Shown here in pieces: positions 4,769-43,107 of a stretch of 64,000 bases of DNA. A model generated the notes under the pieces. It was given only the letters and a program-made list of their open reading frames with translations, did not search any database and was not told where the DNA came from. The stretch's first letter is position 1; each line of letters starts with the position of its first letter. Position numbers and translations under genes: made by a program. The stretch comes from Candidatus Jorgensenbacteria bacterium (GTDB lineage Bacteria > Patescibacteriota > Minisyncoccia > UBA6257 > GWB1-50-10): contig JAZDFV010000002.1 in the NCBI GenBank assembly GCA_043807585.1, positions 25,581 to 89,580 of the forward strand, in the 5' to 3' direction.

Positions 4769-4803
4769 CCGGAGGCCTCACCTCCTCAGGAGGTGAGGCC
4801 TCC
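4769..4803 (+). terminator. GC-rich hairpin (ggaggcctcacctcc / ggaggtgaggcctcc) after the PAP2 gene
   Basis: It is a perfect 15-bp inverted repeat that belongs to the recurring CCTCC-loop-GGAGG hairpin family. Confidence 0.6.
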
Positions 4804-5101: not shown

Positions 5102-5141
5102 GTATTAAGAATCAAATGTCAAATATGTTGTAGGCATACTT

Positions 5142-5165
5142 TCTTATTCGCGCGAATAAGAAAGT
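5142..5165. promoter_or_regulatory. 24-bp perfect palindrome tttcttattcgcgcgaataagaaa (core ATTCGCGCGAAT)
   Basis: The palindrome is perfect, and the same core recurs at 19558 and 32978 upstream of genes. Confidence 0.5.
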
Positions 5166-5234
5166 ACGAGATTTTGAGAGATTGAGAAGCATAAAATAGG
5201 TAAATGCCGAACCACAAGTTTTTTCTTTGGATCG

Positions 5235-6281
5235 CTAAGCGTTCCTTTTATCCCGCTTAGCGGGAATGGCGGCAAATTCTTTCAAATATTTTTTGACCTT
5301 TCCAATAAATAAATCAATTAATAGTATAAAAATTATTAAAAGCAAAATTACCAATAGTTTATGCGTTACCCAAAAGGCATTGATATATATCCAAATATCA
5401 TAGAAAAATCTGTCAAACCAATTGTAATCAGGCGAGGGGAATCTTATTACTTCTTTATTAGCTTTATCGCCATTAACATCTACTTTGATATAGTGATAAA
5501 AATAATGGTCGGGGTCCGTTCCCATTAGTTCAGAACCAGCGCCGCCGGTAATAATATAATTTATTCCATTTTTTGTTTCATCGAAATAAGCATGAATATG
5601 GGAAGCAAAAACAGTATCAACTTTATACTTTTCCATTAAATTAATAAATTCTTGAGCATTCTGTTTGTCGGATAGGGAATGATTGGTGTTGGGACGGGGG
5701 TCAAAAGCTGGCACATGTAAAAAGACAAATTTATGTTGATAGTTTCTCTGCAATTGTTCCTCCAGCCATTTCATCTGCACCGCATCAATTCTTGTTTCAT
5801 TAGCATCGTCTAAGACAACGAATAAAGAATTGCCATAATCAAATGAATAATAAAATTTGCCAAAAATATCAAAATAGTTTTCTGCCCCGCCCTCTCGGAT
5901 ATCGTGATTGCCAACCGCGACCAAAAACGGTGTCTGCTCGTTTTTTATCATATTGTAAAAGATCCGGTATTTTGCTTTTTCACCGTCATACACCAAATCC
6001 CCAACATCAATGGCAAAAGTATAGTGGTTGTTGTCAATATCTTTCAGAATTTTACTAAATATTTTGAAGCTATTTTTATTATCGCCCATCACGGCAAAGC
6101 TGAAGTTGTCTGAAGGCGCGGAAGAATGAATTTTATCAATTTGTTTTTGATTATAATTGCCCGGGCCAACCGGCAAATAATCGTTTAGGCCAATGGTTAT
6201 TAGCAAAATAGCAATGACAACAACGGCAGCAATATGACGCTTTTTAGAGAAATATTTTTTAAAATTATCTTTTAATGACAT
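5235..6281 (-). CDS. membrane-anchored calcineurin-like metallophosphoesterase
   Basis: Phosphoesterase motifs GD, GDLVYDG, GNHD and ASHIH are present, with N- and C-terminal hydrophobic segments. The start was chosen at the internal Met (MSLKDN) because the longer ORF runs into the tRNA-like fragment. Confidence 0.7.
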   Translation of the reverse strand: MSLKDNFKKYFSKKRHIAAVVVIAILLITIGLNDYLPVGPGNYNQKQIDKIHSSAPSDNFSFAVMGDNKNSFKIFSKILKDIDNNHYTFAIDVGDLVYDGEKAKYRIFYNMIKNEQTPFLVAVGNHDIREGGAENYFDIFGKFYYSFDYGNSLFVVLDDANETRIDAVQMKWLEEQLQRNYQHKFVFLHVPAFDPRPNTNHSLSDKQNAQEFINLMEKYKVDTVFASHIHAYFDETKNGINYIITGGAGSELMGTDPDHYFYHYIKVDVNGDKANKEVIRFPSPDYNWFDRFFYDIWIYINAFWVTHKLLVILLLIIFILLIDLFIGKVKKYLKEFAAIPAKRDKRNA

Positions 6282-6317
6282 ATGTTTGTGGGACGCTGAG
6301 CGTCCCGATAACAACGC

Positions 6318-6354
6318 TAAGCGTTGTGCCCGGGGTGGGGGTCGAACCCACACG
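6318..6354 (-). other. degenerate tRNA 3'-half-like fragment (T-arm plus acceptor 3' strand)
   Basis: The minus-strand sequence GTGGG-TTCGACC-CCCAC-CCCGGGC-A looks like a tRNA 3' half. It shares gaacccacacgg with the fragment at 9046-9115. Confidence 0.5.
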
Positions 6355-6363
6355 GCCTTGCGA

Positions 6364-6630
6364 TCACAGGAGTTCTTCAAGCCGTTCGCGTTCCTCGTTG
6401 ATCAGTTCTTGCCATGTGAACGTGCTTTTCCCGCACAGAAATTCCCGCTTCATTTTTTGGTTGTTGTAGAAGAAATTTATCCACGCCCTGCCTTCGGTCG
6501 CGAGATTCACAAAATTTGCTAGCTCTTGGTCGTTCGCCCTGCTGAACAATCTCATCAATTCGCCTCGCTCGATCCCTCCAAGGGTCGAATTTCTTACAAT
6601 GGTTTCAAGTTTGTATAAGTTCGATTCCAT
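6364..6630 (-). CDS. hypothetical protein (88 aa), translationally coupled to the upstream large gene
   Basis: The ORF lies 5 nt after the stop of the 6636..9044 gene, and the region is AT-rich. Confidence 0.4.
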   Translation of the reverse strand: MESNLYKLETIVRNSTLGGIERGELMRLFSRANDQELANFVNLATEGRAWINFFYNNQKMKREFLCGKSTFTWQELINEERERLEELL

Positions 6631-19476: not shown

Positions 19477-19508
19477 TGAGGTTCGACCTCCCCAAGGAGG
19501 TCGAACCT
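19477..19508 (+). terminator. hairpin gaggttcgacctcc/ggaggtcgaacctc after lemA
   Basis: It is a 14-bp perfect inverted repeat of the CCTCC/GGAGG hairpin family. Confidence 0.6.
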
Positions 19509-19557
19509 CCCAAAATTGGGATAGAAGAGAATCCCTTATGCTGTGTTTATCTTCTCT

Positions 19558-20508: not shown

Positions 20509-20546
20509 TTATCACATTAAATCGCGACCGCGATTTAATGTGATAA
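20509..20546. repeat. 38-bp near-perfect palindrome ttatcacattaaatcgcgaccgcgatttaatgtgataa
   Basis: It is palindromic and has a near-identical copy at 21153-21190, on the other side of the PaaX-like gene. Confidence 0.8.
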
Positions 20547-30629: not shown

Positions 30630-30739
30630 CGGCGAATAGCAAGGAGCAGACAATGAACATTGGAACTAAAGTAAAAGATTGGAAGGGTGGGTACTACACG
30701 ATAGCGTAGTACCCTGCCATCAGAACAAAAACCGTGACC

Positions 30740-30866
30740 GAACCACAAACCAAGGTTTGCCAAAATTGTCCCGATTTTGTATGAGCAAAGCGAATGGACA
30801 AAATCGAGTCCCGATTTGTCCTGCGCGAAGTGCAGATGACAAATCGAGGATTCTCGATACAATCGG
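30740..30866. promoter_or_regulatory. array of three related palindromic sites (ACAAAATCGAG..CTCGATTTTGT-like) upstream of the Cys-rich gene
   Basis: The three sites are ccaaaattgtcccgattttg, ggacaaaatcgagtcccgatttgtcc and acaaatcgaggattctcgatacaat. Confidence 0.45.
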
Positions 30867-31090
30867 AAGATCCCGCGCAGCGGGATAAAGAATTATGAAC
30901 AAAGAGATCATCTACTGTGAGCAGTGCTATCAAAGCGAGGTGACTTAAATAAAACGCTATGACATGTCATAGCGCCATACCATGGTTATAGCACCGAGAG
31001 AATCTAAGAAAAGTTAGGATATGACACAAGAGACCAGAACCTACCAGAACTGTCCCGCTACGCGGGATCTCGCGAAGCGAGACAAACACT

Positions 31091-32890
31091 ATGTCTGAAT
31101 CAGAAACAATAGTTTGTCAGAATTGTCATAGTTCCTTCGTCATTGAATCGGAGGATTTTACGTTCTACGAGAAAATAAAAGTCCCGCCGCCGACGTGGTG
31201 CCCGGAGTGCGACAGTGCAAAGAGAATGACTTGGAGAAACGAGAGATCTTTGTATTGGCGCGATTGCGGTTTGTGCGGTAAGAAAACACTCTCGATGTAT
31301 TCAAAAGAAAATCCTTTTACTGTTTATTGTCATAAATGTTGGATATCGGATAAGTGGGACTCATTAGTATTCGGGAGAGATTATGATTTTCAGAAAGATT
31401 TTTTCACGCAATTTTCAGAACTCCAAAAAAGCGTACCCCGCGCCTCGGTTCTCCAATATGGGACCAGTGTAAATTGCGAATTTACAAACTACACCAGAAA
31501 CACAAAAAATGTCCTCCTAGCCTATTCGGTTTCTACCGGTGAAAATATATATTATTCATTCACTGTAGATTGGTCTAAAGACGCGTTGGATTCTTTAATG
31601 TTGAAGAATTCCGAATTGATATTTGAAGGATTTAATTCGGATCATTGTTATAATTCTCAATTTCTCGTAGATTGCCGCGATTGCACCGAATCATCGTATT
31701 TGTATGATTGTGTGAACTGCCAGAATTGTTTTATGTCGGTGAACCTTAGAAACAAACAGTTCGTTTTTTATGGAAGACAGCTTTCGAAAGAAGAATATAG
31801 CAAAGCAATTTTAGAAATTGATATCGGAAGTTTTGAGACGAGGGGAAGATTAAAAGAAGAATTTCATAATGTTATTTTGCAAACAATTCATAAGTATGGA
31901 GATGTAGTTAAGGTTGTTAACTGCACCGGCAACTATCTTTCGAATTGCAAAAACGTGAAAAATTCATATAGCGTGTATGATTCCGAGAACGTAAGAAACA
32001 CCATTCGCGCCTTGAAAGCGAGAGACATCAGGAGTGTTTTTAGCTGCGGAGAAGGGAGCGAACTTATTTATAGCGGGATTGTCGGTGGCAAAACCAGTTC
32101 TAATATAAAATTTTTTGCAAGTGCGGATGTGCTACGCGAATCGCAATACACCGATTGGTGTTTAAGTTCATCAAATCTCTTCGGCTGCATCGGCCTTCGC
32201 AACAAGCAGTACTGCATCCTTAACAAGCAATACACGAAGGAGGAATATGAAGCCCTTGTACCCCGCATCATCGACCACATGAACACCATGCCCTATGTAG
32301 ATACCAAGGGCAGGATATACAAATATGGCGAGTTCTTCCCCCCGGAATTGTCTCCCTTCGCCTACAACGAAACCATCGCACAGGAGTATTTCCCCCTGAC
32401 CAAGGATAAAGCTATTCAACAGGGCTACCGCTGGAGGGACGCGGATACGAGAGATTACAAAATAACCAAGAGACCGGAGGATCTCCCCGACCACATCAAA
32501 GATGTAGAGGATGCAATATTGAAAGAAACCATCCAATGCATGCACCACCCTTCGGCAGGCTCAGGGCAGGCCGCCTGCAATCACCAATGCACCACCGCCT
32601 TCAAGGTTATCCCAGAAGAACTTGCCTTCTACCGCAGAATGAACCTCCCGCTCCCACGTCTTTGCCCCAACTGCCGGCACTACGAACGCCTAAAGCAGCG
32701 GAATCCCCTGAAGCTCTGGCACCGCACCTGCCAGTGTGCGGGAGGAAAAAGCGAGAACGGTGTCTACGAGAACACCATAACCCACCCACACGGCACCGGC
32801 CACTGCCTAAACGAATTCGAGACCAGTTACGCTCCAGAGAGAAAGGAAATCGTGTACTGCGAGAGTTGTTATAATACTGAAGTGGTATGA
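31091..32890 (+). CDS. Cys-rich protein (599 aa) with homologous N- and C-terminal double zinc-ribbon modules flanking internal Cys/Asn-rich repeats
   Basis: Multiple CxxC pairs are present. The termini are related (F.I..E..FY......P..CP.C ... LW.R.C), and there is an internal repeat (CFMSVNLRNKQFVFYGRQLSKEEYSKA / CIGLRNKQYCILNKQYTKEEYEAL). Confidence 0.7.
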   Translation: MSESETIVCQNCHSSFVIESEDFTFYEKIKVPPPTWCPECDSAKRMTWRNERSLYWRDCGLCGKKTLSMYSKENPFTVYCHKCWISDKWDSLVFGRDYDFQKDFFTQFSELQKSVPRASVLQYGTSVNCEFTNYTRNTKNVLLAYSVSTGENIYYSFTVDWSKDALDSLMLKNSELIFEGFNSDHCYNSQFLVDCRDCTESSYLYDCVNCQNCFMSVNLRNKQFVFYGRQLSKEEYSKAILEIDIGSFETRGRLKEEFHNVILQTIHKYGDVVKVVNCTGNYLSNCKNVKNSYSVYDSENVRNTIRALKARDIRSVFSCGEGSELIYSGIVGGKTSSNIKFFASADVLRESQYTDWCLSSSNLFGCIGLRNKQYCILNKQYTKEEYEALVPRIIDHMNTMPYVDTKGRIYKYGEFFPPELSPFAYNETIAQEYFPLTKDKAIQQGYRWRDADTRDYKITKRPEDLPDHIKDVEDAILKETIQCMHHPSAGSGQAACNHQCTTAFKVIPEELAFYRRMNLPLPRLCPNCRHYERLKQRNPLKLWHRTCQCAGGKSENGVYENTITHPHGTGHCLNEFETSYAPERKEIVYCESCYNTEVV

Positions 32891-37918: not shown

Positions 37919-39403
37919 ATGTCAAGTACTAAGAAAAGGGTATTCATTGCGATGTCCCCGAAGCAATCCCTTCGGGATGCTACGGGGCAGGCCGGCGGCG
38001 TGAAGCGGCCGAGGGTTTTTGTTGCGATGAGTGGGGGCGTGGATTCCTCCGTCGCGGCATTGCTGTTGAAAAAAGCCGGCTACGATTGCGTGGGCGTTTT
38101 TATGAAATGCTGGAGTGGAAACGGCCCCTCGGCATCGCTCGGGGCAAGTTGCGCGGAGCGGGATGCGGAGGATGCGCGGCGGGTCGCGGAACATATCGGC
38201 ATACCGTTCTACGTCTTTGATTTTGAGGAGGAATACAAAAAGCGGGTGGTGGAATATATGGTGGAGGGCTACCGCGCTGGTATTACGCCCAACCCTGACG
38301 TGATGTGCAACCGGGAGATAAAGTTCGGGCTGTTCTTGAAACGGGCGCTCGCGCTCGGGGCGGATTATGTGGCGACGGGGCACTACGTCCGTCTGCGGCG
38401 GAATGATGAATTTAGAATTTCTAATTTTGAATCAATTTCTAATTCCAGAATTAACAATTCAAACATTCAATCAAAATTCAAAATTGAGAATTCAAAATTT
38501 GGTCTTTTTCAGGCGAAGGACTTGAATAAAGACCAAAGTTATTTTTTATGGACATTGACCCAGAAGCAACTAAAATACTGCCTTTTCCCCATCGGTGATT
38601 ATCTGAAGTCCGAGGTGCGCGAAATTGCACGGAAGGCGGGGCTCCCCACCGCGGAGAAAAAGGACTCGCAGGGCATCTGTTTCCTGGGCGATGTCCCACT
38701 CAAGGACTTTTTGAAGCAGTATTTGCCGGAGCGGGAGGGGCCAGTGGTGCTTGCCCTGAGCGGAGCCGAAGGGACGGTGTATAAGAAAATAGGGGAGCAT
38801 GAGGGGGCGCATTTCTACACTATCGGTCAGCGCCACGGATTTTTGGTGCAAATGGCAAAGGGCTCCGATGGCAGAGCCATCGCGAGTCCACGACAAAGTC
38901 GGGACAAAGGGCAAAGCAAGGGAGAAACTAAGCCGCACTACATAGCGGCGAAGGATGTCGCAACAAATACGCTTATAGTTGCCGAAGGGAGTGATCACCC
39001 GTCGCTCTTTCAAAGAGAGGTCTCATTAACCGACATCAATTTCATCAATCCACATTCATTAGAAATTGGAAATTGTCTCGCTACGCGAGATCCCGCGAAG
39101 CGGGAGAAATTGGAAATTCCCGTGCTCGCACGGGTGCGGTACCGCCAGCCGCTCTTTGAAGCGACGCTGATTTACTCTGATGGGGAGCGGATAAATGCTG
39201 ATGGAAATCCGTATAAATCAGTTTCAAAATCCGCATCAATCCGCATAGTTTTCAAAAACCCTCAAAAATTCGTCGCTCCCGGCCAGTCCGCGGTGTTTTA
39301 TTTACCCGCCCGTAGCGGTGCGAAGGCGGGCTTGCCCGTCCGAAGCTCGGCGAAGGAGGGTCGCGAGGAGCTTGAAATGTTGGGTGGCGGAATGATTTTG
39401 TAA
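37919..39403 (+). CDS. mnmA: tRNA 2-thiouridine synthase MnmA carrying three in-frame repeat-derived insertions
   Basis: A PP-loop (SGGVDSS) is present, and the ORF is about 130 aa longer than typical MnmA. Insertions sit at 38401-38505 (AT word-palindrome), about 38870-38945, and 39073-39106 (palindromic repeat), and a repeat-derived C-terminal tail follows from about 39325. Confidence 0.85.
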   Translation: MSSTKKRVFIAMSPKQSLRDATGQAGGVKRPRVFVAMSGGVDSSVAALLLKKAGYDCVGVFMKCWSGNGPSASLGASCAERDAEDARRVAEHIGIPFYVFDFEEEYKKRVVEYMVEGYRAGITPNPDVMCNREIKFGLFLKRALALGADYVATGHYVRLRRNDEFRISNFESISNSRINNSNIQSKFKIENSKFGLFQAKDLNKDQSYFLWTLTQKQLKYCLFPIGDYLKSEVREIARKAGLPTAEKKDSQGICFLGDVPLKDFLKQYLPEREGPVVLALSGAEGTVYKKIGEHEGAHFYTIGQRHGFLVQMAKGSDGRAIASPRQSRDKGQSKGETKPHYIAAKDVATNTLIVAEGSDHPSLFQREVSLTDINFINPHSLEIGNCLATRDPAKREKLEIPVLARVRYRQPLFEATLIYSDGERINADGNPYKSVSKSASIRIVFKNPQKFVAPGQSAVFYLPARSGAKAGLPVRSSAKEGREELEMLGGGMIL

Positions 39404-42770: not shown

Positions 42771-43107
42771 TCGGAGCGGGCTGGCCCTTCGTTCTTGAAT
42801 CCTTAGTCCCTTGGATTCTTGAACTTAATCTTCAGCCCTTTTCGCACTACGCGAAAAGGGCTGTATATTTTTGTATAATGAAAGCGGAGTTCCCGAATCT
42901 GCCGCGGCCAATACTGTTTGCTGGCGAAGCAGGGTTTCGGCGGGGGATTCCAAGTTTATAACGAAGGGCCAGCTGGTGCCGGGCGCTAGCGAGCTCACGG
43001 CTCGGAATAAAATTCAGCATTGAGAATTCGCCAAAGACGCCAGTCGCGATTCAAAATGCGGTGACACGGGAGGCGCGCGGCAATGGTTAACGGCGGTTGC
43101 GGCGAAC

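Follow-up and report, generated by a model that had tools for sequence, protein, structure and literature searches.

How does the same near-palindromic repeat come to lie both between two genes and, in frame, inside the tRNA 2-thiouridine synthase gene mnmA? The question was raised by a 64,000-nucleotide stretch of the genome of Candidatus Jorgensenbacteria bacterium (NCBI GenBank assembly GCA_043807585.1, contig JAZDFV010000002.1, positions 25,581 to 89,580 of the forward strand), referred to here as the window and numbered from its first letter; loci outside it are cited by L numbers. The organism belongs to the Patescibacteria or Candidate Phyla Radiation (CPR), whose proteins are known for unexplained extra segments. 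The comparisons presented below indicate that both window copies probably belong to a family of tiny mobile or selfish palindromic repeats, each a 30-nt double hairpin that is tolerated in coding sequence and that would be inserted by a strand-specific, hairpin-recognising process.

The two copies had been described, in a sequence-only reading of this DNA, as a 34-nt reverse-complementary pair with two mismatches at 31051-31084 and 39073-39106. The pair is real, and its description required correction in three respects. A mismatch-tolerant pattern search matched 31051-31084 on the + strand (tgtcccgctacgcgggatctcgcgaagcgagaca) to 39074-39107 on the - strand, one base further along than first placed (the letters of 39073-39107 are ttgtctcgctacgcgagatcccgcgaagcgggaga), with three mismatches, and no match of any kind was obtained in shuffled sequence (0/100 shuffles). 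Of the three mismatches, each 3-nt loop holds one, at its middle base, and the third is a flank base. The repeat unit is a 30-nt core rather than 34 nt, and consists of two abutting 15-nt hairpins, TCYCGC-NNN-GCGRGA twice, with stems of 6 bp and loops of 3 nt. Modelled as single strands of DNA, the full window copies each form two adjacent 6-bp hairpins at -11.9 kcal/mol (z about -4). Since the element nearly equals its reverse complement, alignment of the copies is possible in both orientations; direct alignment gives five mismatches, four of which are two compensatory C:G<->T:A stem swaps, and the loops TAC and GAA then keep their order. Judged on these letters, opposite orientation appears the more parsimonious of two possible readings, which two copies alone do not settle. 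In total, six of the 15-nt hairpin units are present in the 64-kb window, compared to about 0.015 expected by chance (our own estimate). Among them is a shorter hairpin, gatcccgcgcagcgggat, which the sequence-only reading had correctly located at 30869-30886. The intergenic core lies between alaS and a gene for a 599-aa zinc-ribbon protein, 8 nt upstream of the ATG of the latter.

The copy within mnmA resides in an intact host gene. The product carries three MnmA Pfam domains, its PP-loop and catalytic cysteines are invariant in the alignment, and the core lies in frame (...LEIGNCLATRDPAKREKLEIP...), encoding residues 386-396, CLATRDPAKRE. The earlier proposal that an in-frame palindrome occupies a loop of MnmA, to be abandoned if relatives lacking the intergenic copy conserved the segment as protein, is supported by these comparisons. 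Alignment to 31 homologues shows hypervariability of both length and sequence between NFINP and VLARVRYRQPL, and the core-encoded segment is conserved in 0/31 of them, the closest (65% BLASTP identity, 69% in the alignment) having NDYFLIRANKKAVTMK at the core site. The window protein is the single member of its protein cluster. In an AlphaFold model with a mean predicted local distance difference test (pLDDT) score of 74, residues 381-400 have pLDDT 56-65 and lie between confident strands 364-375 and 398-405. The core peptide is predicted to sit where the C-terminal barrel begins, in a variable loop on the surface. Removal of the 30-nt core from mnmA leaves a (GAAATTG)x4 array with the frame intact (HSLEIGNWKLEIP), and the resulting product (..NPHSLEIGNWKLEIPVLARV...) has a loop length typical for relatives. 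As removal restores this array, the 14-bp direct repeat around the core is the interrupted heptamer array and no simple target duplication, a candidate that was rejected also because its 44-nt period does not keep the frame, because a core in L055 has the same heptamers at its flanks and because arrays in other loci continue uninterrupted across cores.

Other repeats were found at this site in relatives. In the closest relative (L149 1314), a different and perfect palindrome, CTTTCTTATTC-GCGC-GAATAAGAAAG, supplies the codons of the MnmA loop peptide FLIRANKK (..YFLIRANKK..), and the identical 26-mer is present in the window at 5139-5164, between genes. There the palindrome reads TACTTTCTTATTC-GCGC-GAATAAGAAAGTA with a 13-bp stem (hairpin 5137-5166), the reciprocal of the finding in mnmA. 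In another relative (L150), the same MnmA site holds GC-rich hairpins of a 6+3+6 design, TCCGCC-AGA-GGCGGA. Three other low-confidence, lineage-specific segments of the window MnmA are likewise encoded by repetitive DNA (Table 1).

Beyond the window, the exact mnmA 30-mer (TCTCGCTACGCGAGATCCCGCGAAGCGGGA) was found in 26 metagenome contigs, which together with the window and two genome loci represent 22 distinct flank contexts, 21 of them besides mnmA. No fewer than 12 conserved genes other than mnmA carry it in frame. Hosts confirmed through Pfam include RpoC, Rpe, LepA at two different sites, LspA, DnaG and MnmA, in addition to a class-I aminoacyl-tRNA synthetase, a radical SAM enzyme, a metallo-beta-lactamase (MBL) hydrolase, an IF-2B-family protein and an RNaseH-like protein; in topoisomerase I (TopA) the 30-mer lies within the zinc ribbon (CPKC|..). 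Other variants of the family are present within further genes, including those for UvrC, MetK, ArgRS (two sites, two lineages), an FAD oxidase and an aminotransferase. The exact 30-mer is read in each of the three sense frames with similar frequency (SRYARSREAG, xSLREIPRSG and CLATRDPAKRD), which excludes a shared peptide motif. The unit is 10 codons long, is open in five of six frames and yields peptides that are short, hydrophilic and high in Gly, Pro, Arg, Asp and Ala, and its persistence in coding sequence can be attributed to these properties. That a small palindrome can reside in coding sequence without disrupting the frame, as first suggested from mnmA, therefore holds well outside the window, through the in-frame hosts, the three frames and the filled and empty alleles described below. 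The window itself begins inside rpoC (1-2469), which is empty at the site of the 30-mer in Azambacteria RpoC.

Pfam-verified genic copies lie on the coding strand in 12 cases and antisense in one (DnaG). Two of the three antisense frames are open, and against a 3:2 expectation this distribution has p about 0.01 by our own binomial estimate, which is suggestive of a strand-specific process. The + strand of the window has positive GC skew throughout.

To define the wider family, a degenerate 30-mer, TCYCGCNNNGCGRGATCYCGCNNNGCGRGA, was searched in species-representative genomes (596 Gb), yielding at least 117 stretches, mostly in Patescibacteria, compared to about 0.03 expected (our own estimate). 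Among the matches listed, with taxa taken from record titles and tallied by us, 55 loci are in Patescibacteria lineages, 26 in Lentisphaeria (many per metagenome-assembled genome, or MAG, some in 80-nt arrays), 19 in "uncultured Gammaproteobacteria" MAGs, seven in Kiritimatiellae, four in Ignavibacteria, three in Aquincola and three in others (Chitinophagales, Bdellovibrionales, Actinomycetota). One Lentisphaeria MAG contains at least 14 loci (16 copies). Viral contigs yielded 0 matches to the degenerate core. The 30-mer of the intergenic window core (31053-31082) was found identical in a Doudnabacteria genome (L110). Because proteins of the "Gammaproteobacteria" MAGs most resemble CPR loci among the sequences compared, and carry CPR-like insert peptides, the label of those MAGs is doubtful and may be wrong (loci so titled include L012, L015, L016, L042, L043, L055, L078, L087, L100, L106 and L113).

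Features lying outside the search pattern inform on how the element varies. Loops vary freely among family copies, and at the one free stem position the arms co-vary (C:G 189, T:A 42, mismatched 5). Flanks follow the consensus T-T-G / core / C-A-A, whose halves each occur in roughly 50-70% of copies, and a YTG left flank is present in 16 of the 22 contexts of the exact mnmA 30-mer. TTG on one side only was dropped as an orientation marker, the half-sites being independent. Direct repeats between left and right flanks are enriched (mean longest shared word 6.8 vs 4.4 in local controls) and are often AT-rich 7-8-nt tandem arrays continuous across the core. The double hairpin of Lentisphaeria and Aquincola forms one module of an ~80-nt unit flanked by (GGATATT)n, arranged in short tandem arrays at many loci per genome (L086 348/428, L114 4351/4431, L029 76/249, L019 572/650). 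Doublets were also observed in which a TCCCGC hairpin is joined to one with a different stem, TCTGGC..GCCAGA or TCCAGC..GCTGGA (L021 3381, L063 5508, L056 2609, L087 1633). From such sequences the family appears broader still, a 6+3+6 hairpin design with several stem variants, also including TCCGCC-AGA-GGCGGA.

The many non-homologous sites, a nested copy and presence or absence in near-identical alleles together indicate that gains and losses involve the 30-mer as one discrete unit. At L139, one 30-mer is nested in another, TCTCGCTACGCGAGATCCCG-30-mer-CGAAACGGGA, at CCCG|CGAA with nothing duplicated, and subtracting the inner copy restores the element with one substitution. Within one 90%-identity cluster of LspA, proteins reading ..YWQI-LSLREIPRSG-TIA-VFNLAD.. 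and ..YWQI-PFT-VFNLAD.. are exactly 10 residues apart, with the filled and empty states each found on two backgrounds. The corresponding DNA (L147 vs L145) reads ..GGCAGATTC-30-mer-CAATCGCAGTTTTT.. when filled and ..GGCAAATTCCTTTTACTGTTTTT.. when empty, a difference of exactly +30 nt after ..ATTC, with only six other differences over about 1 kb. RpoC of Azambacteria (L079 vs L118) reads ..TEKDC-LATRDPAKRD-DDIGFVMRRSDGDEF.. when filled and ..TEKDC-GEIEGFLLKKKDSDEF.. when empty; these alleles are about 99% identical outside a ~70-nt patch, and the left junction falls exactly after TTG. Rpe with the 30-mer has 10 extra residues compared to a solved homologue. MetK was set aside as a clean 10-codon insertion, being ambiguous, with a long loop there in its best solved homologue. 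Finally, of two near-identical radical-SAM genes (L125 vs L148), one has the 30-mer at the site where the other has a 69-nt hairpin-rich insert unrelated to it, and both this site and the MnmA loop would appear to behave as insertion hot spots.

Taken together, these sequence comparisons point to the 30-mer as mobile or selfish DNA and not a conserved part of MnmA. New copies would be inserted by a strand-specific, hairpin-recognising process after YTG, preferably at TTG|CAA, and without obligatory target duplication, in the manner of single-stranded-DNA elements such as IS200/IS605 or REP-RAYT. Sites already holding hairpins or AT-rich heptamer arrays would be the preferred targets, and filled alleles could then spread secondarily by homologous recombination.

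Several observations weigh against this account. At all three polymorphic sites, the sequence immediately 3' of the core has diverged over a short patch, the remainder being ~99% identical (about 65 nt in RpoC, L079 vs L118; 8 nt in LspA, L147 vs L145; about 8 nt in the radical SAM gene, L125 vs L148), and such patches are predicted by no cut-and-paste model. The net gain in the RpoC pair is 27 nt, and the ArgRS copy in L071 has no net length gain over its homologue, for which reason it was rejected as an added insertion. In about one copy in three, the core is bracketed by heptamer arrays or by direct repeats of 6-8 nt peculiar to that copy, which could mean a target duplication of variable length. 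The orientation bias rests on 13 sites and is absent when the wider family is oriented by its stems (6 vs 7 in our tally, using the first stem). Stem conservation is largely by construction, as the search pattern fixes the stems, and the 64-kb window shows only two full and two half copies. Furthermore, tblastn with IS608 TnpA and E. coli RAYT queries against 1.04 Mb (window plus loci), a weak test for a mobilising enzyme, gave no match better than E = 1.

A more far-reaching version of the mobile-repeat reading can be put forward tentatively, as a possibility with the odds against it. The 30-nt double hairpin may itself be the complete mobile unit, strand-specific and without target duplication, entering YTG sites and other hairpin elements, mobilised in trans by a putative hairpin-recognising enzyme and exchanged horizontally among Patescibacteria and other phyla; with its sister palindromes, it could then be a major source of lineage-specific insertions in CPR housekeeping proteins. 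To our knowledge, a complete mobile unit of 30 nt would rank among the smallest described.

The serious rival is ectopic templated synthesis, which requires no element-specific enzyme and which we consider unlikely overall while granting that it would fit the 3' patches and variable flanks better. A nascent strand stalled near a hairpin or heptamer array would switch to another copy of the palindrome through microhomology (..TG / CA..), copy it along with, at times, a few flank bases, and switch back. Diverged or non-homologous short patches do adjoin the core in filled alleles, flank relations range from none through 6-8-nt direct repeats to no net length gain, microhomology-like TTG/CAA flanks are common, cores are associated with slippage-prone heptamer arrays, and the weak tblastn test over 1.04 Mb found no transposase. 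What this explanation does not anticipate is the exact 30-nt boundaries of the nested copy and of LspA, or the recurrence of one 30-mer in numerous genomes and phyla, at sites with a strong motif and biased in orientation; both argue for specific recognition.

A second alternative, distinctly less probable, holds that there is no present movement to new sites and that the insertions are old, with filled and empty alleles shuffled among related strains by DNA uptake and homologous recombination in a homing-like co-conversion. In the filled RpoC allele, divergence is raised over ~140 nt around the core, compared to about 99% identity in the remainder of the gene, and the patch still encodes homologous RpoC sequence; the two backgrounds of each LspA state and the presence of comEC in the window also agree with such exchange. 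It fails, however, for the nested copy and for the 22 non-homologous contexts of one identical 30-mer whose loops are otherwise free.

It is very improbable that the repeats are host cis-elements maintained by selection locus by locus, as RNA stability or processing signals, protein-binding sites or terminators. Pairing is kept through C:G<->T:A changes, the motif occurs in several phyla, and the intergenic copy sits just upstream of a start codon, all of which speak for such a role; set against this are the non-homologous positions inside essential coding regions, where copies are present or absent, and the unconstrained loops. No terminator or promoter call covers either full window copy and no T-run follows the hairpins, so a terminator or promoter role for them was rejected; an Rfam scan of the window matched only a tRNA and left the repeat without a match. 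Finally, a shared peptide motif, C-[LP]-A-T-R-D-[PL]-A-K-R-[DE], favoured by a direct alignment in which both window copies and two single hairpins read PA(K/Q/T)R(D/E), or an assembly or linker artefact, favoured by a GGATCC in a core whose centre presumably resembles a BamHI linker, is effectively refuted, the former by the use of the same DNA in three different frames elsewhere and the absence of the peptide from MnmA homologues, the latter by copies in over 100 assemblies from unrelated projects, their loops variable and the host ORFs (open reading frames) of in-frame copies intact.

Among known systems, the closest functional case is the Rickettsia palindromic elements (RPEs), which were reportedly described by Ogata et al. 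in 2000. Like the 30-mer, these are dispersed palindromes found between genes and in frame inside conserved genes of small-genome hosts, where their peptides lie in surface-exposed, non-conserved segments. They differ in being about 100-150 bp long and confined to Rickettsia, whereas the unit described here is 30 bp, uses all three sense frames and occurs in many Patescibacteria lineages and other phyla; it is set apart from RPE-1 to RPE-8 by size and is apparently unrelated to them in sequence. Passages of PMC10969869 and PMC1779305 cite Ogata et al. 2000 for these elements.

In architecture, the closest are doublets of repetitive extragenic palindromes (REP/BIME/REPIN, associated with RAYT, or TnpA-REP) and mitochondrial double-hairpin and GC-cluster elements. 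REP sequences are also GC-rich palindromes of 20-40 nt in doublets, with stems kept and loops free, no obligatory target duplication, and high copy number in some genomes (for the 30-mer, Lentisphaeria and Kiritimatiellae). They are, however, extragenic, whereas many 30-mer copies are in frame inside Pfam-verified genes including mnmA; they carry GT[AG]G at the hairpin foot rather than flanks of the form TTG / core / CAA; and they coexist with a RAYT gene flanked by REPs, of which none was seen in the weak tblastn test of 1.04 Mb. The mitochondrial elements, such as the double-hairpin elements (DHEs) of Allomyces (Paquin et al. 2000), similarly consist of two consecutive GC-rich hairpins, 26-80 nt long with conserved stems and variable loops, and share occasional residence in coding regions and tandem arrays, but they are organellar and unrelated in sequence to this repeat of bacterial hosts. 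Yeast GC42 clusters have the short preferred target AG and an unclear mechanism that is no simple cut-and-paste (PMC4478555), and sponge RHEs are comparable mitochondrial hairpin elements (PMC2800124).

IS200/IS605 elements and the hairpin-bearing MITEs (transposable elements of miniature size with inverted repeats) known as PATEs offer a possible working analogy through their hairpin ends, short specific insertion sequence, lack of target duplication and strand bias. They are nevertheless longer than 100 bp, have guide and cleavage sequences offset from the hairpins and need TnpA, and the 3' patches would be unexpected from that chemistry. Classical MITEs have a target-site duplication of fixed length, in contrast to the nested copy and the LspA pair, which have none, and to the flank repeats of variable length in a subset of copies. 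As the defining features of these groups (extragenic location with a GTAG head, fixed duplication, size) are lacking, the 30-mer was not filed under REP-RAYT, classical MITEs or RPEs. A literature search found no description of such palindromic or REP elements in Patescibacteria, an absence that is no proof of novelty, and no bacterial double-hairpin counterpart with in-frame copies in many essential genes.

The 30-mer gives at least some of the extra segments in CPR proteins a concrete origin at the DNA level: in the window MnmA, the core segment and three other low-confidence segments come from palindromic or tandem-repeat DNA. Compared with the classic Rickettsia case, to which it provides a bacterial counterpart, its unit is far smaller and its hosts are much more widely spread, and it opens the question of how these elements move and create new peptide loops in essential enzymes, among them RNA polymerase, topoisomerase I, LepA and tRNA-modifying enzymes, for which the filled and empty alleles and the hot spots are direct handles for population-genomic and biochemical tests. 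In practical terms, gene calling, alignment and phylogenetic analysis of CPR marker genes can be led astray by such repeats.

Table 1. Double-hairpin copies, their host and neighbouring genes, and other repeat-derived segments of mnmA in the window.
Feature	Position	Strand	Remarks
Double-hairpin core inside mnmA, 30 nt: TCTCGC-TAC-GCGAGA + TCCCGC-GAA-GCGGGA	39076..39105	+	Reads (C)LATRDPAKR(E), residues 386-396
Two GAAATTG heptamers directly 5' of the mnmA core	39062..39075	+	Last TTG is the usual left-junction motif
GAAATTG GAAATT heptamers directly 3' of the mnmA core	39106..39118	+	Same array continued
Second full core, intergenic: TCCCGC-TAC-GCGGGA + TCTCGC-GAA-GCGAGA	31053..31082	Ambiguous (palindromy)	Flanks ..CTG and CAA..
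Single 15-nt hairpin TCCCGC-GCA-GCGGGA in repeat-rich spacer	30871..30885	Not assigned	Short hairpin of the sequence-only reading
Single 15-nt hairpin TCCCGC-TTA-GCGGGA	5251..5265	-	Absent from the sequence-only reading; encodes C-terminal tail ..AIPAKRDKRNA* of 381-aa ORF 5235-6380
Host gene mnmA, 494 aa, tRNA 2-thiouridine synthase, intact	37919..39403	+	Pfam, homologues, alignment, model
Gene for 599-aa CxxC zinc-ribbon protein, just downstream of the intergenic copy	31091..32890	+	Without Pfam family; context
AT-rich inverted repeat within mnmA	38401-38508		..FRISNFESISNSRINNSNIQSKFKIENSKF..
GCGGAT...ATCCGC palindrome (inverted repeat) within mnmA	39167-39244		..ERINADGNPYKSVSKSASIRI..
GC-rich 30-nt tandem pair within mnmA	39302-39360		LPARSGAKAG / LPVRSSAKEG

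The spacer that holds the intergenic core (30725-31090, from alaS to the 599-aa zinc-ribbon gene) contains decayed copies of the first ~12 codons of that gene at about 30735, 30895 and 31021, two tandem 40-nt hairpin units (30767-30846) and a perfect 20-nt palindrome (30955-30974). A 25-codon ORF at 31021-31098 crosses the intergenic core and overlaps the ATG of the zinc-ribbon gene.

Hairpins with stems of at least 7 bp are frequent in the window as a whole, with 60 calls compared to about 12.5 in shuffles (loop sizes 3-5, several sites being counted twice). Long palindromes based on GAGGT(T/G)NNNCCTCC and perfect over stems of 14-15 bp, for example GAGGTTCGACCTCC-ccaa-GGAGGTCGAACCTC, are located at 4771-4803, 19478-19509 and 49441-49472, and isolated perfect hairpins of mixed composition with 13-18-bp stems at 20509-20546, 54998-55037, 55606-55636 and 42833-42863.
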